In this document: one piece after another, positions 39,419 to 48,130 of the stretch | How the letters are laid out: each line of letters begins with the position of its first letter | How positions within the stretch are numbered: the stretch's first letter is position 1 | Sequence record: OR906198.1 | Reading direction: 5' to 3' (one strand) | DNA from: Escherichia phage BP32 | Length of the DNA stretch: 64,000 bases | Translations under genes and position numbers: made by a program | Notes under the pieces: generated by a model | The model's database searches: none | The model's input: the letters and a program-made list of their open reading frames with translations, nothing else | Told to the model about the DNA's origin: nothing

Positions 39419-40425
39419 AAACAGTAATGAAAAGCTATTTTGGTAGTCATCTTTATGGAACTTCTACTCCAGAATCTGATGTAGATTTCAAAGAAATCTT
39501 TGTTCCTCCTGCTCGCGACATTCTTATCGGAAATGTTAAAGAGCATATGAGTAAAAACACTAACAACACATCATCTAAAAACACTAAAGATGATATTGAC
39601 CATGAACTATACAGTCTTAAGTATTTCTTTAAATTAGCAGCAGATGGTGAAACTGTAGCATTGGATATGCTCCATACTCCACCTGAACTGGTAGTTAAAT
39701 CTGATTTGCCTGATGTATGGAAGTTTATTCAAGACAATCGTTCTCGTTTTTATACGACTAACATGAAATCCTATTTAGGATATGTCCGCAAGCAAGCTTC
39801 TAAATACGGTGTCAAGGGTTCTCGTTTGGCTGCATTGCGTGATGTATTGAAAGTAGTTAATCAAATCCCTGATCAGTGGGTTGATTATCAAGAAGACGGT
39901 TCCATTAAGCAACGTCGTACTAAAGTTGAAGATATTAAGCATCGTCTTCCAGAGAACGAGTTCTGTGAATGGGTGTTCCATAATCACGAGAAAACAGGCC
40001 CGCAAACGTTCTATACTGTGTTGGGTCGTAAATATCAGACAACGCTTTCTCTTATTGAGCTTAAGCAGTCACTGAACAAATTAGATGCTGAATACGGCGA
40101 ACGTGCTCGTAAGGCTGAAGCGAATGAGGGCATTGACTGGAAAGCTCTTAGTCATGCTTGCCGTGGTGGACTCCAACTATTGGAAATTTACAAAACTGGT
40201 GATTTGGTTTATCCACTCCAAGATGCTCCATTTATTCTCGACGTGAAGTTGGGTAAACATCCATTTAAAACTGTTCAAGAGTTTTTGGAAGATGTGGTCG
40301 ATCAAGTAGAAGCAGCATCCATTGAAGCTTCTAAGAACGGTATGCAGCAAAAAGTAGACATGAGTTTCTGGGATGACTTCCTTGAGAGGGTTTATCTTGA
40401 AAACCACCGAAGTTATTATAAATGA
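39415..40425 (+). CDS. predicted nucleotidyltransferase-fold protein (Pol-beta superfamily)
   Basis: 336 aa; N-terminal G-S-x9-S-D-V-D (FGSHLYGTSTPESDVDF) fits hG[GS]x9-13Dh[DE]h; candidate third acidic residue in VALDML. Confidence 0.6.
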   Translation: MKTVMKSYFGSHLYGTSTPESDVDFKEIFVPPARDILIGNVKEHMSKNTNNTSSKNTKDDIDHELYSLKYFFKLAADGETVALDMLHTPPELVVKSDLPDVWKFIQDNRSRFYTTNMKSYLGYVRKQASKYGVKGSRLAALRDVLKVVNQIPDQWVDYQEDGSIKQRRTKVEDIKHRLPENEFCEWVFHNHEKTGPQTFYTVLGRKYQTTLSLIELKQSLNKLDAEYGERARKAEANEGIDWKALSHACRGGLQLLEIYKTGDLVYPLQDAPFILDVKLGKHPFKTVQEFLEDVVDQVEAASIEASKNGMQQKVDMSFWDDFLERVYLENHRSYYK

Positions 40426-40428
40426 TAA

Positions 40429-40452
40429 GGGAGCCTTCGGGCTCCCTTTTTT
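40429..40452 (+). terminator. intrinsic terminator
   Basis: GGGAGCC-TTCG-GGCTCCC stem-loop followed by TTTTTT. Confidence 0.7.
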
Positions 40453-40477
40453 ATTTCAAAAATTTTTCATAAAACTG

Positions 40478-40506
40478 TTTACAAGCATAAAGCTTTATGG
40501 TACTAT
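40478..40506 (+). promoter_or_regulatory. T4-type early promoter
   Basis: -35 TTTACA, 17-bp spacer, -10 TACTAT; conserved GGTACTATACAACTATCAACT leader. Confidence 0.7.
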
Positions 40507-40540
40507 ACAACTATCAACTGATACGGATTTGGAGAATAAA

Positions 40541-41509
40541 ATGAAAACTGTAACTATCAATAAAGGTATCTACTTCGGTAAAGAAATCTCTGGAACTTTT
40601 GAGCTCTTAGGCGAATGGTTCCCAGATAATGCTCCGGTAGATGCACAAGGAGATGGTAAAGTTTTTGTTGAAATTGACGGTAAACGTCGCGGTGTTTGGG
40701 TTTACAAATCAGATATTTCATATGATGGTGTAAAAGTTGAAGAAGTTAAAGAATCATATGAAGATATGAAAACCCGCATTAATAAAAGATTTAATGTTAT
40801 GGGAATGATGACGAATGGTATTATTAATGGAAATATTCGTTCATTAATTATCTCTGGCGCAGCAGGTATTGGTAAAACGTATTCTTTAGATAAAGCTTTA
40901 AATAAAGCAAATGATATTGGATACATTGAATATAAAAGCATTAATGGTAAAATCTCTGGTATTGGTCTTTATGAGCAGCTTTGGAATAATCGTGAAGAGA
41001 ACTCTGTCCTTTTGATTGATGATGTGGATGTTTTCTCTGATATGGACATTCTTAATCTTCTGAAAGCTGCTCTGGACACTGGAGAGACCCGTAAAGTCTG
41101 CTGGAGCACTGCATCTTCTTACTTAGAAGAAAAAGGCATTGACCGTGAGTTTGAATTTAAAGGAACGATTGTTTTTATCACAAACGTTGATATTGACCGC
41201 GAATTAGACCGTGGTACTAAACTTGCCCCACACTTACAAGCATTAGTGTCCCGCTCAGTTTATTTAGATTTGGGTGTTCACACTAATGAAGAAATTATGG
41301 TCAGGGTTGAAGATGTTATTCTTTCAACCGACATGATGCAAAAGCGCGGTCTTTCTGATGAAGAAACTTATAAAGCATTATCATGGATGAAAGTTAATGT
41401 TAATCGTTTACGCAATGTTTCACTGCGTACTGCTCTTTATCTTGCTGACTTTATTATGACCGACAAAAACGGTTGGGAAGAAATTGCTGAGGTTACTCTT
41501 CTGAAATAA
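40541..41509 (+). CDS. P-loop ATPase (AAA-like)
   Basis: 322 aa from ATG 40541 behind GGAGAAT RBS; Walker A ISGAAGIGKTYS, Walker B VLLIDDVD, sensor-1-like FITN. Confidence 0.7.
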   Translation: MKTVTINKGIYFGKEISGTFELLGEWFPDNAPVDAQGDGKVFVEIDGKRRGVWVYKSDISYDGVKVEEVKESYEDMKTRINKRFNVMGMMTNGIINGNIRSLIISGAAGIGKTYSLDKALNKANDIGYIEYKSINGKISGIGLYEQLWNNREENSVLLIDDVDVFSDMDILNLLKAALDTGETRKVCWSTASSYLEEKGIDREFEFKGTIVFITNVDIDRELDRGTKLAPHLQALVSRSVYLDLGVHTNEEIMVRVEDVILSTDMMQKRGLSDEETYKALSWMKVNVNRLRNVSLRTALYLADFIMTDKNGWEEIAEVTLLK

Positions 41510-42501: not shown

Positions 42502-42556
42502 CCGCTTTATACCAAGGATGGTATAATGGTTCTAAGCCCTTTTAATTGAGATTATT

Positions 42557-42971: not shown

Positions 42972-43859
42972 ATGTCAGTCGTAATTAATAATGTCAATGC
43001 AGTAATTAAATCTTTAGTTAATAAAAAATCAAATGAATGGACTGTACTTCAACACGACGAGTCAGATAAATTTTTTCATAAATTTAACCCAGTACTAAAT
43101 TTAAATGTTATTGATAAAGATGTTCACGCCGAAATTTTAGATAAGTTTAAAGTTGATATTGGATTTGGATTAGAAAAACATTTACAACGAACAAACGGGT
43201 CTGGAATGCTTTTATCTAATCGCATCATGAAAGCCCTTAATAAAATTGGAGCGTTGTCTCGCATTAACGCGAGTGAAATTCTTCGCAATTATAATAAAGG
43301 ATATGACCTTTATGGTCGACTAATGCCGAAATTATCATTTGACCAAATGATCGCAGATTTGTGGGAAAATCAACGACGATTATTAGCATTAGGCGCTCGA
43401 TTAGCTAAAGGTCTAGATAAACAAATGATTTTTAAAACTAATAATACAGAAGACCTTAAATGCTTTAAATTTAGTACTCGTGGAGATGATTATTACGTCA
43501 GAGCTCGCTCTACAGATTATGTTAATATGGGGCATCATCTCTGTTTAGCTTTTGAAATTTTAAAAGAAGCTGGAACATTAGAATATGTGTCTGGTGCTAA
43601 ATGTCCGATTGGTTCAAGTTGTATTTTAATTTATCGCCCGGATGAATCCAGTTCAACTAAATTGCCTACAAAACCTGTACCAGTTCATAGTAATGAAAAA
43701 CATTCTGAACAAATTGATTATTTTAATAAGCAAATTGAAGAGCTGAATATTTCTATTCAACAATATGACGATGAAATCTTTAGACTATCCGGATTGAGTA
43801 GTAAAGCTAAATCTGAACGTGAAAAATTAATTAAAATTGTTGATTTACTTAAATCTTAA
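42972..43859 (+). CDS. paralog family protein 1 (C-terminal coiled coil)
   Basis: 295 aa from ATG 42972 behind GTGAGGAAAA RBS; shares central motif and C-terminal coiled coil with next three ORFs. Confidence 0.65.
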   Translation: MSVVINNVNAVIKSLVNKKSNEWTVLQHDESDKFFHKFNPVLNLNVIDKDVHAEILDKFKVDIGFGLEKHLQRTNGSGMLLSNRIMKALNKIGALSRINASEILRNYNKGYDLYGRLMPKLSFDQMIADLWENQRRLLALGARLAKGLDKQMIFKTNNTEDLKCFKFSTRGDDYYVRARSTDYVNMGHHLCLAFEILKEAGTLEYVSGAKCPIGSSCILIYRPDESSSTKLPTKPVPVHSNEKHSEQIDYFNKQIEELNISIQQYDDEIFRLSGLSSKAKSEREKLIKIVDLLKS

Positions 43860-43867
43860 GGAACACC

Positions 43868-44896
43868 ATGAAAACTCGTTCTCAAATTGAAGATATGGTT
43901 CGTAATGCCAGTTATACTCGTGATGTTATGACATTTTTGTGTGAAAATAATTTAGACCTTAATAAAGTTAATTGTTCCATTCACGCCTTTAAACATCTGA
44001 ATAGCAGTGAATGGGTGCGTAATTTTAGCGAAGCAGGGTATATTACACAAATGACGGCTCGTGAGCAGCTCACTGATTTCTGTAAAACTATCGATTATAA
44101 AAATCCTCTATTTGTTCAAGGCGTTGGTCAAAGTAAGGTCGATTTATCATCTGGATTTTTTAATCCAAATCATTATCGTATTGAATGGAGATTTATTGCT
44201 CTGTTCCGCAAGCAACTAAAACAAATTTTATCAACTGCGAGTCGATTAAAAGGTTCTGATATTAACTTAAAGAATCTGAAATTTGATGGTTATACTCTTC
44301 AGATGGAAGTAAGACCATTAAAAGAAAATAATAGAACTGCACGAATTAGCTTTAAACCTAATACAAAAAATTCTCTTTCAATTTGTGAATGCCTTAAATC
44401 GCAGTTGACAGAAGCATTTAAGTATATGGATGTTGTTGCTGCTGTCCAGTCTAAGATTTCACAGCGTTTCGAACTATTTAAATTAGACACAACAACATAT
44501 AAACTTGATATGATCGTTTCATTTAAATACGATTTTTTGAGAAAGGACGAAGTCACACAAGAGAAAAAGCAGGAAGTGCAAGATAACTTAAATTTAAATT
44601 TATCCAATTACTCATCAAACGATCCTAAATTTTGGATGTATAGTTCAGGTAATAAAGATGCATGGAAATTCAATAAAGTGAATTTTCTTCCTATTGAAAA
44701 TCCGAGTCTTAAACCTGTTGAAAAATGGCATGCAGATGCGATTGAAAAGTCTATCAAGGCAGTAGATGATGAACTCGTTAAAGCAACTAATGAAGTGTTA
44801 GAAGCTGAAAAGATGCTAGAAAAAGCTCAAGAAAAAGTCAAAAATCTCACGAAGCAACGTTCTAAACTGAACAATGCACTAAATGCACTGAACTAG
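43868..44896 (+). CDS. paralog family protein 2
   Basis: 342-aa ORF; RFIALFRKQLKQILSTASRL motif and C-terminal heptad-repeat helix. Confidence 0.7.
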   Translation: MKTRSQIEDMVRNASYTRDVMTFLCENNLDLNKVNCSIHAFKHLNSSEWVRNFSEAGYITQMTAREQLTDFCKTIDYKNPLFVQGVGQSKVDLSSGFFNPNHYRIEWRFIALFRKQLKQILSTASRLKGSDINLKNLKFDGYTLQMEVRPLKENNRTARISFKPNTKNSLSICECLKSQLTEAFKYMDVVAAVQSKISQRFELFKLDTTTYKLDMIVSFKYDFLRKDEVTQEKKQEVQDNLNLNLSNYSSNDPKFWMYSSGNKDAWKFNKVNFLPIENPSLKPVEKWHADAIEKSIKAVDDELVKATNEVLEAEKMLEKAQEKVKNLTKQRSKLNNALNALN

Positions 44897-44925
44897 TTTA
44901 CTTTACCACAGGGATGTGGTATAAT
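44897..44925 (+). promoter_or_regulatory. T4-type early promoter
   Basis: -35 TTTACT, 17-bp spacer, -10 TATAAT with TGG extension. Confidence 0.65.
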
Positions 44926-44953
44926 GTTCTTACTTTCTACTGAGGAGATTAAT

Positions 44954-45955
44954 ATGACTCGTAACGAATATATCAAATCATTCAATAGCGTTATTGATGA
45001 TAAAGCTATACCGATGTTTGGCCAAAATAGCGTTCTTTCTATTATCAATCAATGGCTCAATAGTGTTGATGCAGGTATTGTTTCTTCTACTAAATTTATT
45101 CATGAAATTCGTAAAATTTCTAGTCGTGTAGATAAAGATGTTATCAAGAAAACCTTTAAAGAGTCTCGTCTTCTTTCATATTTGGTTAATCGGGATATTC
45201 TTGGTAATTTTGGGAAAGAAATTAAACGAACCAAAGATGTAGTAGGATATAATTGGTTCGGTGATGTTAATACTTATCATCTTAATACTAAAGAAGACCC
45301 TGAGAATATTTTTACTCGTCGTTGGGTTAGTGAATTTAGGAGTTTTACGAAGCAAATTCTAAAATCAGCTTCTAAATTATGTTATGGCGATTATCGTCAA
45401 ATTCATCCCTTAGCTGATGATATGATTATAGCAGAAGAATATGAGCTTGATAAAAACAAAGTAGCTATTTTTATTAATTACAGATTTTTTACACCAGAAA
45501 CTAACCAAAGGAATATTAATAAATTTTTCTCAATTGCTAGCACTATAACTCGTCAATTAGAGACTGCACTACTTTGTATGGAAACGGTAGAAAATATTCA
45601 TACTTATCCTTTTAAGAATATGTGCGGCTGGGAAGGATATAAAATTGTAGTTAGTCTTCGTGAAGTGAAATGTGCTTATTCACCGACTGATAAAGAAATT
45701 TACCAACAAAAATGCGAAGAAATTGTGAATACTCCTAAAGAAGAAACTACCCTTGAGGAACTAATGGAATGTCTTGATGATTCGCCTGAACCGGTAGAAA
45801 TTCGTCCAGAAGTTATTGCATTAGAAAAAGCTTATAAAGAAGTTTTAGAAATTTCTAATAAAGCGCAGAAAGAATATGAGAAGGCTAAAAGGATTTGGGA
45901 AGAATCTGTTAATCGCTTGGATCGTCTTGAACAAGCTTTACAGTTAATTAAGTAA
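44954..45955 (+). CDS. paralog family protein 3
   Basis: 333 aa from ATG 44954 behind GAGGAG RBS; same architecture. Confidence 0.7.
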   Translation: MTRNEYIKSFNSVIDDKAIPMFGQNSVLSIINQWLNSVDAGIVSSTKFIHEIRKISSRVDKDVIKKTFKESRLLSYLVNRDILGNFGKEIKRTKDVVGYNWFGDVNTYHLNTKEDPENIFTRRWVSEFRSFTKQILKSASKLCYGDYRQIHPLADDMIIAEEYELDKNKVAIFINYRFFTPETNQRNINKFFSIASTITRQLETALLCMETVENIHTYPFKNMCGWEGYKIVVSLREVKCAYSPTDKEIYQQKCEEIVNTPKEETTLEELMECLDDSPEPVEIRPEVIALEKAYKEVLEISNKAQKEYEKAKRIWEESVNRLDRLEQALQLIK

Positions 45956-46007
45956 TTTAAAGCCAAGGATGGCTCGGAGTATAAATCATTAACTAAGTGA
46001 GAAGAAC

Positions 46008-46937
46008 ATGAAAACTCGTAAACATTATATTGATTATTTTGACAGTCTTATTACTAAACATCGTAATTATCAGATCGGGCACAGAGCAGTAATCAATAAT
46101 ATTCTTCGTGATTTCCTTCAATATGTTGGCCAGGAAAATCATATCTGTAAAGATACTCAAAACGCTTATTCTCATTCGTTGGGCAATTTGCTTCAATGGT
46201 TTAAACGTTCTCGTCTGTTATCTTCTACTGTAGCTAGTGATAACATTAAAAACTTTATGAAGCCGAGCTTCATTAAATCTGCGACATCTATAACCGATTT
46301 GGTTGAATTTACTATTGTTAACGATGTTAAAAAGACCCATTTGGCTGATTGGTTATCTACCATTCCTGAAACTAAATTTGCTGATAAATTCGCTTGTCAA
46401 TTCAATGACCAAGTGAATATGCTTTTTAAGCATGCTCGTAAACTATTTACCGCGGGTGATGACCGTACAAATACAGTTCATGTTAAGGACTGGGTTATTG
46501 CTGATGAAGTAACACACAAGCCAGGTGGTTCATCAGTATTAATTAATATCCAGGTTCCTTATTATTACTCACGTAATCTCGGCACCATGACAGCTAGAGA
46601 AATTAATAAGCATAACAAAACTATTCGTTCGTTGTCTTATAAACTCTGCACGATGGTGGAGATGATGGACGTAGTGGAAATGTATGACGAAACCGAAGAT
46701 AATGGTTCAATGTTATACAGTTCACGCATTCTAATTAAACTGAAGAACCCTAATACGTATAAGCCAGTTGTAAAAGAACCTAAAATAGAAAAGGTTGATA
46801 ACTTGAGCGAAGAACGTGAATACCTCAAATCTCGACTAGTTGAAGTTGAAGCTCAGATTGCCGAACACACTAAATTGTTAAAAGCTCTTAATGCAAAAGC
46901 AAATGGTTTACGTAATGCTATTGAGGTATTGAAATGA
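46008..46937 (+). CDS. paralog family protein 4
   Basis: 309-aa ORF; same architecture. Confidence 0.7.
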   Translation: MKTRKHYIDYFDSLITKHRNYQIGHRAVINNILRDFLQYVGQENHICKDTQNAYSHSLGNLLQWFKRSRLLSSTVASDNIKNFMKPSFIKSATSITDLVEFTIVNDVKKTHLADWLSTIPETKFADKFACQFNDQVNMLFKHARKLFTAGDDRTNTVHVKDWVIADEVTHKPGGSSVLINIQVPYYYSRNLGTMTAREINKHNKTIRSLSYKLCTMVEMMDVVEMYDETEDNGSMLYSSRILIKLKNPNTYKPVVKEPKIEKVDNLSEEREYLKSRLVEVEAQIAEHTKLLKALNAKANGLRNAIEVLK

Positions 46938-47251
46938 AAAAGCGTCTATTAGAAGATATTGCAGCTTCAAGTAATTCCAGTCTAATTAAAATTATTATGG
47001 CTGGTGAAGAAGACGATTTAGAAATGCGTGGAAAGATTCATGGTTGTGACGATCTAGACTTTAAACCTCCTGCTTGGGATGCCATTATGGCTATGGTTGA
47101 ACGCCGCGAAAGGGCTTCTAAGAATGTTCCGAACTGCCCAAAATGTGGTACTAAACAGGTCCAATTGGTCAATTGGCATAAACCAGAACTTGAATATAAA
47201 TGTCGTCATTGCAAACACCGATTTAACCGAGAAGAAAATGCCCAAGCGTAA
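46934..47251 (+). CDS. zinc-ribbon protein
   Basis: 105 aa; CPKCG...CRHCKH four-Cys motif; ATGA-coupled. Confidence 0.6.
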
Positions 47252-47481: not shown

Positions 47482-47745
47482 ATGTTTAAAGTATATGGTT
47501 ATGATAGCAACATCCACAAATGTGTGTATTGCGATAATGCAAAACGTCTTTTGACTGTGAAGAAACAGCCGTTTGAATTTATCAACATTATGCCGGAAAA
47601 AGGTGTTTTTGATGATGAGAAAATTGCTGAACTTCTGACTAAACTAGGTCGTGACACTCAAATCGGATTGACGATGCCTCAGGTATTTGCTCCTGATGGA
47701 AGTCATATTGGTGGATTTGACCAATTGCGGGAATACTTTAAATGA
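47482..47745 (+). CDS. nrdC: glutaredoxin/thioredoxin NrdC
   Basis: 87 aa with CVYC active-site motif; T4 NrdC length. Confidence 0.85.
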   Translation: MFKVYGYDSNIHKCVYCDNAKRLLTVKKQPFEFINIMPEKGVFDDEKIAELLTKLGRDTQIGLTMPQVFAPDGSHIGGFDQLREYFK

Positions 47746-47957
47746 TGCTCGAAGGAACTGATTATATCCATGACTACCGCGGAAGCGCGGTATATGTGGG
47801 TGATGAGGTTGCAGTTTATTATGGGTATGGAACTTTGATGACAGCAAAGGTTATTCAAATTAAAAATGGCCGTGCTAAACTCGAAGTTTATTATTCTAAT
47901 GGTGAAAAGTCTATTTCTAAATGGAAATACGGCGATTGTATGGTCAAATTGGGGTAA
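47742..47957 (+). CDS. hypothetical small protein
   Basis: 71-aa ORF, ATGA-coupled to nrdC. Confidence 0.5.
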   Translation: MMLEGTDYIHDYRGSAVYVGDEVAVYYGYGTLMTAKVIQIKNGRAKLEVYYSNGEKSISKWKYGDCMVKLG

Positions 47958-47959
47958 AT

Positions 47960-48130
47960 ATGATTTACGATATTAGTGTATCAAGAACTCCGTCAATGGT
48001 TACTATTCCAGCTGAAGAATTAGATCGTCTTCAGAAAATTGAAGAACTTCTTTGGGAAATTGAATCTGATTTGCCATCAGGATTAGAATCCTGGATTGAT
48101 TATGAAGAACTTAATAAATTGCGAAATTAA
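47960..48130 (+). CDS. hypothetical small protein
   Basis: 56 aa from ATG 47960 behind GGGGTAAAT RBS. Confidence 0.4.
   Translation: MIYDISVSRTPSMVTIPAEELDRLQKIEELLWEIESDLPSGLESWIDYEELNKLRN

Follow-up and report, generated by a model that had tools for sequence, protein, structure and literature searches.

Positions 42,972 to 46,937 of a 64,000-nucleotide stretch of DNA from Escherichia phage BP32 (sequence record OR906198.1; the whole stretch is called the window here) hold four consecutive plus-strand open reading frames (ORFs) of 295, 342, 333 and 309 amino acids (aa), at the coordinates given for them in an earlier, model-made reading of the letters alone (hereafter the sequence-only reading). 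That reading could not place them in any T4 gene, and on this point it was wrong. When the locus is aligned gene for gene with its annotated counterparts in phages ime09 and T4, order, position and identity mark the set as the orthologues of T4 nrdC.6, nrdC.5, nrdC.4 and nrdC.3 (Table 1). The four are dispensable pre-replicative genes of an accessory region between nrdC.7, which lies upstream of the block, and nrdC.2, which is followed downstream by nrdC.1 and the glutaredoxin gene nrdC (47482-47745). At the DNA level, the 4.1-kb stretch matches 656 phage records, nearly all of them Tequatrovirus, with a top identity of 95-96%; the window itself is a Tequatrovirus, ~95% identical to ime09/NBG2. 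At the protein level, nrdC.6, nrdC.5, nrdC.4 and nrdC.3 are 94, 92, 93 and 60% identical to their T4 counterparts and 94, 96, 94 and 94% identical to those of ime09, respectively. The start codons at 42972 and 44954 were chosen over those of longer mechanical ORFs because each is preceded by a Shine-Dalgarno sequence and agrees with the T4 annotation. No RNA genes were found when these were sought in the region.

Existing databases distribute these proteins over three separate families of unknown function. The 342-aa ORF matches DUF7235 (PF23882) over its full length, and the same model gave no match to the other three ORFs (295, 333 and 309 aa). Homologues of nrdC.6 (93-94% identical to the 295-aa ORF) carry PF26899 (Phage_T4_Y05B), while homologues of nrdC.4 (85-93% identical to the 333-aa ORF) carry PF26897 (Phage_T4_Y04OP), which is also found on the nrdC.3-derived portion of a hybrid protein, P0056, described below; nrdC.4 and nrdC.3 are placed together both in PF26897 and in phrog_1435. 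Judged by such homologues and PHROG matches, the window's proteins fall within the existing families PF26897, PF26899 and PHROGs 1435, 2351 and 2257. In searches of Pfam (in a release without the PF26897 and PF26899 models), NCBIfam and PDB sequences, the DUF7235 match of nrdC.5 was the sole significant one, with sub-threshold noise that included coiled-coil proteins and XerD-like matches. Although the genes themselves are already known, we did not find described the relationship reported here, which joins the three database families as one superfamily and adds to them single-copy relatives from other Straboviridae genera and Marfavirus that link the groups.

Table 1 Features of the nrdC.6-nrdC.3 block and its transcription signals (window positions)
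Feature	Position	Strand	Evidence
nrdC.6 orthologue, 295 aa	42972..43859	+	phrog_2257 E 1e-149; most divergent paralogue
nrdC.5 orthologue, 342 aa	43868..44896	+	DUF7235 (PF23882) 406.9 bits, gathering cut-off 30
nrdC.4 orthologue, 333 aa	44954..45955	+	phrog_1435 E 1e-166
nrdC.3 orthologue, 309 aa	46008..46937	+	phrog_1435 E 4e-115
nrdC.6 motif 1 (aa 89-110, LNKIGALSRINASEILRNYNKG) to motif 2 (aa 126-149, MIADLWENQRRLLALGARLAKGLD)	43236..43418	+	hhalign, MAFFT
nrdC.5 motif 1 (aa 53-74) to motif 2 (aa 108-131, RFIALFRKQLKQILSTASRLKGSD)	44024..44260	+	hhalign, MAFFT
nrdC.4 motif 1 (aa 68-89, FKESRLLSYLVNRDILGNFGKE) to motif 2 (aa 123-146, RWVSEFRSFTKQILKSASKLCYGD)	45155..45391	+	hhalign, MAFFT
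nrdC.3 motif 1 (aa 65-86, FKRSRLLSSTVASDNIKNFMKP) to motif 2 (aa 127-151, KFACQFNDQVNMLFKHARKLFTAGD)	46200..46460	+	hhalign, MAFFT
nrdC.6 heptad helix, aa 247-295	43710..43856	+	a/d 0.71 vs 0.17; shuffle p 0.0045
nrdC.5 heptad helix, aa 294-342	44747..44893	+	a/d 0.71 vs 0.09; no shuffle as high
nrdC.4 C-terminal helix, aa 285-333	45806..45952	+	a/d 0.50 vs 0.17; shuffle p 0.17
nrdC.3 heptad helix, aa 261-309	46788..46934	+	a/d 0.79 vs 0.09; no shuffle as high
MotA-box-like middle promoter upstream of nrdC.7: TGG before TATAAT; GCTTTA, 12 nt, TATAAT	42504..42527	+	sequence reading
T4 early-type promoter before nrdC.4: GTTTAC, 17 nt spacer, TGGTATAAT	44896..44925	+	sequence scan
Weak promoter-like site before nrdC.3: TTTAAA, 18 nt, TATAAA	45956..45985	+	sequence reading; uncertain

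The four genes go back to ancient duplications within one protein family, have since diverged strongly, and have relatives only in T4-like phages (Straboviridae and the related Klebsiella phage Marfa). Pairwise BLASTP among the four proteins yielded a single significant pair, nrdC.4 and nrdC.3 (E 5e-9, 26% identity over 226 residues), and no paralogue pair is more than 26% identical; BLASTP therefore cannot decide the question of paralogy. When small alignments were compared using hhalign, nrdC.4 and nrdC.3 were joined with a probability of 98.5% (E 2e-15), nrdC.5 and nrdC.4 with an E-value of 1.2e-3 over 248 columns in matching order, nrdC.6 and nrdC.4 with an E-value of 8e-3 over 132 columns, and nrdC.6 and nrdC.5 with an E-value of 0.12. 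Two sequence motifs, described below, fell within the aligned columns of every one of these pairs. We repeated the comparison after cutting the last 65 residues, and with them the C-terminal coiled coil, from all sequences and enlarging the alignments with bridging proteins. The nrdC.5 group then matched the nrdC.3/4 group with a probability of 93% (P 3e-7, 160 columns), the nrdC.6 group matched the nrdC.3/4 group with a probability of 90% (P 1.6e-6, 100 columns), and the nrdC.6 and nrdC.5 groups matched one another with a probability of 27% (P 7e-4, 62 columns), while column-reversed control alignments were not significant (P 0.15-0.56). The profile similarity of the cores is thus independent of the coiled coil, as is expected of a single superfamily, and the claim of the sequence-only reading that these are paralogues with a common architecture was upheld.

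An iterative search with hidden Markov models (HMMs), seeded with nrdC.3 and run over 228 proteins (family representatives together with every ORF of 120 aa or more in the window and in eleven loci), converged at 47 proteins, all of which belong to the four families or are positional relatives in other genera, including Marfa gp080, Klebsiella JIPh_Kp122 0066 and Yen gp94. The search recruited no other ORF from this set, in which SbcC-like coiled-coil proteins were included. The bridging relatives are proteins of similar size, found at comparable positions upstream of nrdC in distant T4-like phages. In Marfa gp080, from a Klebsiella phage, the first 225 residues match the nrdC.4 and nrdC.3 profiles and the last 68 match the nrdC.5 profile; in the Yersinia phage fHe-Yen9-01, gp94 matches both nrdC.6 and nrdC.3 via the motif 2 core, and gp111 matches nrdC.5.

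Each protein is built from the same parts in the same order. A variable N-terminal segment leads into a conserved core, of predicted alpha-beta-beta-alpha-beta-beta topology, that carries two signature motifs; after it come a disordered linker with many indels, a short KP(V/I) boundary rich in proline, and an amphipathic C-terminal helix of ~50 residues that ends in (A)(L/I)xxLK. Motif 1, FKxSRLLS...L.NFGK, lies upstream of motif 2 and is common to the four families. Motif 2 corresponds to the common segments that the sequence-only reading had picked out in all four proteins, and these do occupy the same columns, both in the hhalign alignments and in a MAFFT alignment of 17 sequences. In the latter alignment, a third helix is also conserved (for example LTEAFKYMDVV, LETALLCMETV and LCTMVEMMDVV) and is followed by a strand ending in LK or LR and then by the variable linker. 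An N-terminal M(K)TR..YI signature could be aligned as well, from which nrdC.6 is exempt.

The C-terminal helix had been described as a heptad-repeat helix of roughly 50 aa in all four proteins. We assessed this over the C-terminal 49 residues of each by comparing the fraction of L, I, V, M and F at positions a and d with that elsewhere, and with shuffled sequences. The pattern, which extends over at least five heptads, was significant in nrdC.6, nrdC.5 and nrdC.3 (shuffle p <= 0.005) and weaker in nrdC.4 (p 0.17), whose C-terminus is in register with the other three in the MAFFT alignment. The helix is predicted to oligomerise as a coiled coil.

AlphaFold2 models of nrdC.5 and nrdC.6 show the same architecture. 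The nrdC.5 model has a mean predicted local distance difference test score (pLDDT) of 67, with values of ~80-90 for residues 56-222 and below 50 for residues 225-280; it consists of a helix at 105-127 (motif 2), strands at 144-151 and 155-162, a helix at 169-186, strands at 190-200 and 210-219, and a disordered linker followed by a single long helix at 286-341. In the nrdC.6 model (pLDDT 78), the helix at 123-144 (motif 2) is followed by strands at 165-170 and 173-178, a helix at 186-199, strands at 204-209 and 217-221, a linker, and helices at 242-271 and 277-294, so that the order of secondary-structure elements in the two models is identical. A Foldseek search of a viral structure library paired the nrdC.5 model with that of JS10 nrdC.6 (probability 1.00, E 1.7e-3), and both models matched, at probability 1.0, the same uncharacterised proteins of 300-370 aa from T4-like phages of Pectobacterium, Klebsiella, Erwinia and Yersinia, including proteins of phages PM2, Mineola, Cronus and fHe-Yen9-01; the nrdC.6 model additionally matched proteins of Acinetobacter phages. 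Template modelling scores (TM-scores) between families were low (0.27-0.49), because the long helix is flexible. PDB sequence searches returned no relative with a solved structure.

The number of copies of the gene differs between phage genera, a point in favour of the sequence-only reading, and ranges from zero to two in distant genera to three or four in coliphage genera. Tequatrovirus has all four genes, Mosigvirus RB69 has three (nrdC.6, nrdC.5 and nrdC.3), and Dhakavirus JS10 and phage pEC-M719-6WT.2 each have three (nrdC.6, an nrdC.5-like gene and nrdC.4). Two non-adjacent copies are found in Tegunavirus fHe-Yen9-01 (gp94 and gp111), and one copy each in Marfavirus and Jiaodavirus, immediately upstream of nrdC.2-like genes. 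A single tentative copy is present in Lazarusvirus Konradin (gp116, whose match is limited to the C-terminal helix), and none was seen in Gualtarvirus MP1. Phage records with a match numbered 741 for nrdC.6, 581 for nrdC.5, 554 for nrdC.4 and 653 for nrdC.3. An exhaustive profile search among 1.84 billion representative proteins revealed ~5 full-length clusters, at 50% identity, for the nrdC.5 family; its 13 matches included none from outside the T4-like phages and no members of the nrdC.3, nrdC.4 or nrdC.6 families. Two of the proteins matched in this search, the chimeric-looking P0235 and the repeat protein P0236, are probably artefacts.

The sequence-only reading had also called the family tandemly amplified, which implies a recent event, and this did not hold. 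We found no DNA-level repeats between the four genes beyond chance-sized matches of 14-22 nt, one of which, of 19 nt, covers the shared start-codon region encoding MKTR. With no such repeats and with paralogues that are at most 26% identical, recent tandem amplification was rejected, and the duplications are ancient. Rapid divergence, which that reading had likewise proposed, was confirmed: between genera the four proteins are 23-49% identical (the exception being nrdC.3, at 77% to RB69), as compared with 68-92% for nrdC.10, nrdC.8 and NrdC. Within the genus, rates of nonsynonymous substitution (dN) for the four genes are 0.02-0.04, with gene-wide ratios of nonsynonymous to synonymous rates (dN/dS) of 0.11-0.27, while for the flanking nrdC.10, nrdC.9, nrdC.8 and nrdC, dN is at most 0.017 and dN/dS is 0-0.12. 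The four genes are therefore faster than their neighbours, yet are under purifying selection overall, a pattern of relaxed or fast evolution rather than a demonstration of the arms-race selection that had been suggested. Among 52 Tequatrovirus alleles of nrdC.5, the motif 1 and motif 2 blocks are nearly invariant (entropy 0.00-0.12 per block), as is the core from motif 2 to helix 3, and variation is concentrated at residues 16-60, 196-210 and 226-285.

The nrdC.3 gene differs from the rest in its relation to T4. The window's nrdC.3 is 77% identical to that of Mosigvirus RB69 and 60% identical to that of T4/T2, while its neighbours share 92-99% identity with T4. In a set of 653 phage records, the alleles of this gene fell into three classes, of 90-99% (355 records), 75-79% (~175) and 58-60% (116), and the first and last of these are both found inside Tequatrovirus. 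This pattern looks like allele replacement by recombination.

Natural rearrangements of the block were also observed. An in-frame nrdC.5::nrdC.3 hybrid (P0056; loci L013 4570-5900 and L014 1931-3261) is present in a natural T4-like genome represented by a 167-kb metagenome scaffold, and in four contigs in all; its junction reads ...AWKFNKVN|MLFKHARKLF..., nrdC.4 is deleted, and the nrdC.5 part has a frameshift near residue 83. In phage vB_EcoM_ACG-C40 (NC_019399.1, ~47512-47923), tblastn placed nrdC.5 residues 1-69 directly against nrdC.3 residues 238-309, and it seems that a deletion joined the ends of nrdC.5 and nrdC.3 with the loss of nrdC.4. The annotated NrdC.5 of RB69 (L003 5195-6230) has a non-helical tail, and the typical coiled-coil ending (...QYSKLFNAMNALKS) is encoded a little further on in a different frame, which shows that the reference record contains a frameshift, either real or a sequencing error. 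Finally, a 173-aa protein, P0230, encoded on an 803-bp metagenome contig (L012 120-641), combines an unrelated N-terminal part with the exact C-terminal coiled coil of nrdC.5, as a result of either module shuffling or chimeric assembly.

The sequence-only reading had assigned early promoters of their own to two of the genes. This was borne out in part. The scan confirmed a canonical T4 early promoter before nrdC.4, at a position where the phage Lutter record also annotates a promoter. For nrdC.3, all that precedes the gene is a weak promoter-like site, which is absent from the promoter scan list, from the Lutter annotation and from the other records consulted. A third site, the MotA-box-like middle promoter upstream of nrdC.7, again has an annotated promoter at the equivalent place in Lutter and, judged by sequence, is likely to be the start of an nrdC.7-nrdC.6-nrdC.5 transcript. 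The proposal of an early transcription unit was supported. We also observed that a sequence of the type CCA(A/C)(A)GGATG(T)GG recurs in the spacer of each of the three promoter-like sites (TACCAAGGATGG, TACCACAGGGATGTGG and GCCAAGGATGGC, at window positions 42510-42521, 44903-44919 and 45963-45979), with a small hairpin in two of them; this could be a conserved spacer feature of early promoters or a remnant of duplicated intergenic DNA.

One member of the family has a function assigned by experiment. Srikant, Guegler and Laub (eLife 2022; PMC9391042) described an evolved T4 clone with deletions that had lost infection of E. coli ECOR17 and recovered it upon deletion of the host's dsr1, where Dsr1 is a SIR2 NADase. 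In the same study, plasmid-borne dsr1 from ECOR17 shielded MG1655 from the T4 deletion clone, and T4 nrdC.5 expressed from a plasmid restored plating of the deletion mutant on dsr1-carrying MG1655. T4 mutants with reduced genomes that lack the entire nrdC.1-6 fragment are viable (PMC9825161). According to a 2026 preprint (PMC12803255), the major capsid protein of the phage is what triggers E. coli Dsr1, via a tetratricopeptide repeat (TPR) sensor that Dsr1 has in common with Avs7 and thousands of other defence proteins. The papers searched included none on what nrdC.6, nrdC.4 or nrdC.3 does and none on the mechanism of nrdC.5. The window's nrdC.5 is the orthologue of the T4 gene, with 92% identity, the same position and a full-length Pfam match. 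For this gene, the host-interaction or anti-defence role that the sequence-only reading had expected of the family has published support in the T4 orthologue. Since nrdC.5 overcomes Dsr1, nrdC.6, nrdC.4 and nrdC.3 become candidate immune-evasion factors, and for these three we infer such a role from the architecture and, by profile and fold evidence, the ancestry that they share with T4 NrdC.5. They differ from it in that none of them matches DUF7235 and in that each aligns with nrdC.5 over short segments at identities of ~25% or less. The interpretation given by the sequence-only reading is in this sense partly supported.

The 17-sequence alignment contains no conserved pattern of polar residues across the family that would suggest catalysis, which makes stoichiometric binding the most likely mode of action; judged in this way, the family most likely consists of non-enzymatic, oligomeric binders of host immune proteins. 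This reading, the simplest one, also draws on the pairing of a conserved globular core with a long amphipathic helix, and on the defeat of a sensor-effector protein by one member. The explanation that we favour, and regard as fairly probable, is that ancient paralogues of T4-like phages serve as early-made stoichiometric binders of immune proteins. Expressed from early or middle promoters as infection begins, the paralogues would each capture and inactivate a separate immune protein of the host, or separate alleles of a single one. Where the target is oligomeric, the coiled coil would make the binding multivalent, and the paralogues and their alleles would provide different specificities; direct binding and the role of the coiled coil are the steps that we infer. 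A more specific version, which we think unlikely as it stands, would make the nrdC.6-nrdC.3 array a set of diversified oligomeric sensor blockers, each paralogue or allele being tuned to a different one of the many bacterial immune proteins with a TPR sensor of the Dsr1/Avs7 type, or to other pattern-recognition sensors of phage structural proteins, with specificities re-assorted via nrdC.3 allele swaps and paralogue hybrids.

Several observations weigh against the proposal of paralogous immune-protein binders. The Dsr1 evidence is genetic complementation with a single T4 paralogue, and the literature searched holds no published binding or mechanism. No gene-wide positive selection was found, because gene-wide dN/dS is below 0.3, and a nearly invariant core among Tequatrovirus alleles, combined with a variable N-terminal segment and linker, does not by itself point to a fast-changing binding surface. 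As for the shared ancestry, plain iterative HMMER did not merge the three groups once the last 65 residues had been removed, so that the link at the HMMER level depends on the C-terminal module. The homology of the core rests on the enlarged-alignment hhalign comparison, on motifs that keep a fixed order, and on the models of nrdC.5 and nrdC.6, whose confidence is moderate (pLDDT 67 and 78, respectively).

One alternative is that nrdC.4 and nrdC.3 are the only true paralogues, with nrdC.6 and nrdC.5 as unrelated proteins that came to share a portable coiled coil and a generic alpha/beta domain by module shuffling or convergence. Such a history would account for the lack of significant BLASTP matches between groups, for the E-values of 1.2e-3, 8e-3 and 0.12 from small alignments, for the failure of HMMER to cross group boundaries without the C-terminus and for the low between-family TM-scores (0.27-0.49), and the C-terminal module does appear mobile, as in P0230 and the natural nrdC.5::nrdC.3 hybrids. 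We nevertheless consider it improbable, given that enlarged profiles free of the coiled coil gave probabilities of 90-93% with clean reversed controls, that motif 1, motif 2 and helix 3 occur in one order across the families, that the nrdC.5 and nrdC.6 models have an identical order of elements, and that the single-copy bridges Yen gp94 and Marfa gp080 match more than one family through the core.

A common ancestry could also be accepted together with a different function. Many T4 early proteins act on RNA polymerase, and the family might likewise be a host-takeover factor unrelated to immunity, for instance a modulator of host transcription or of another housekeeping complex, in which case the effect of nrdC.5 on Dsr1 would be indirect. 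The strong conservation of the core within the genus is what a conserved host target would lead one to expect, and the mechanism by which Dsr1 is evaded is unpublished in the literature searched. Set against this are the fact that the block can be deleted on laboratory hosts, the requirement for nrdC.5 specifically in the presence of Dsr1, and the variation in copy number and alleles, which resembles that of accessory counter-defence genes; we therefore judge this explanation to be improbable too, and to about the same degree. Less probable still is mimicry, in which these proteins, made early, would imitate a structural protein of the phage with a tail terminator or tail completion fold and act as decoys for host sensors of virion proteins. 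Foldseek did return tail completion proteins (E 5e-3 to 3e-2), and bacterial sensors of tail terminators and other structural folds have been described (PMC12803255), but the Foldseek scores are within the range of generic alpha/beta similarity, and the proteins have no sequence relation to any solved structure.

Among known systems other than T4 NrdC.5 itself, the closest in role to the proposed immune-protein binders is DSAD1, an inhibitor of the SIR2 protein DSR2 encoded by SPbeta-type phages, which is likewise described as neutralising a defence-associated sirtuin NADase and as doing so by binding DSR2 (PMC10973363, PMC10981675, PMC11087589). DSAD1 and NrdC.5 differ in target and in phage lineage, and for NrdC.5 binding is a proposed mechanism. 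Structural similarity to tail terminator/completion proteins of the lambda gpU type and to the N-terminal domain of the RNA polymerase alpha subunit came with low scores that were equalled by designed proteins. Membership in the tail terminator/completion group, which would call for late expression and a place among the tail genes as well as a fold match, was rejected: this block is early and dispensable, it does not lie in the tail module, and sequence similarity is absent.

Of these four long-known T4 ORFs, one has an assigned function, and if all four share one scaffold, the other three are ready candidates for further counter-defence factors. The parts that could be targeted by mutation are now defined (the two motifs, the core, the linker and the coiled coil), and the natural variation among T4-like phages in copy number, allele and hybrid form could be set against host defence repertoires. 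Because T4-like phages are widely used in phage therapy, host-range genes that act through immune evasion are of practical value.

Other features of the region deserve mention. The 105-aa nrdC.2 (window 46934-47251) overlaps the stop codon of nrdC.3 by 4 nt, carries a zinc ribbon-like four-cysteine pattern, CPKCG...CRHCKH, and shows variability of its own, being 83-86% identical to its T4 and ime09 counterparts with synonymous rates (dS) of 0.44-0.59; an older paper remarked on a weak TFIIS_C match of this protein. Further downstream, beyond nrdC, positions 47742-48130 are another variable spot of the region: in the window, as in ime09, a pair of small ORFs of 71 and 69 aa occupies the place that gene 49.3 has in T4. 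Upstream, between nrdC.11 and nrdC.10, a strong hairpin at 40427-40448 (a 9 bp stem with six G-C pairs, followed by a T run) has an annotated terminator as its equivalent in phage Lutter. A mechanical 378-aa ORF (40373-41509) traverses this hairpin, and the true start of nrdC.10 is probably at 40541.

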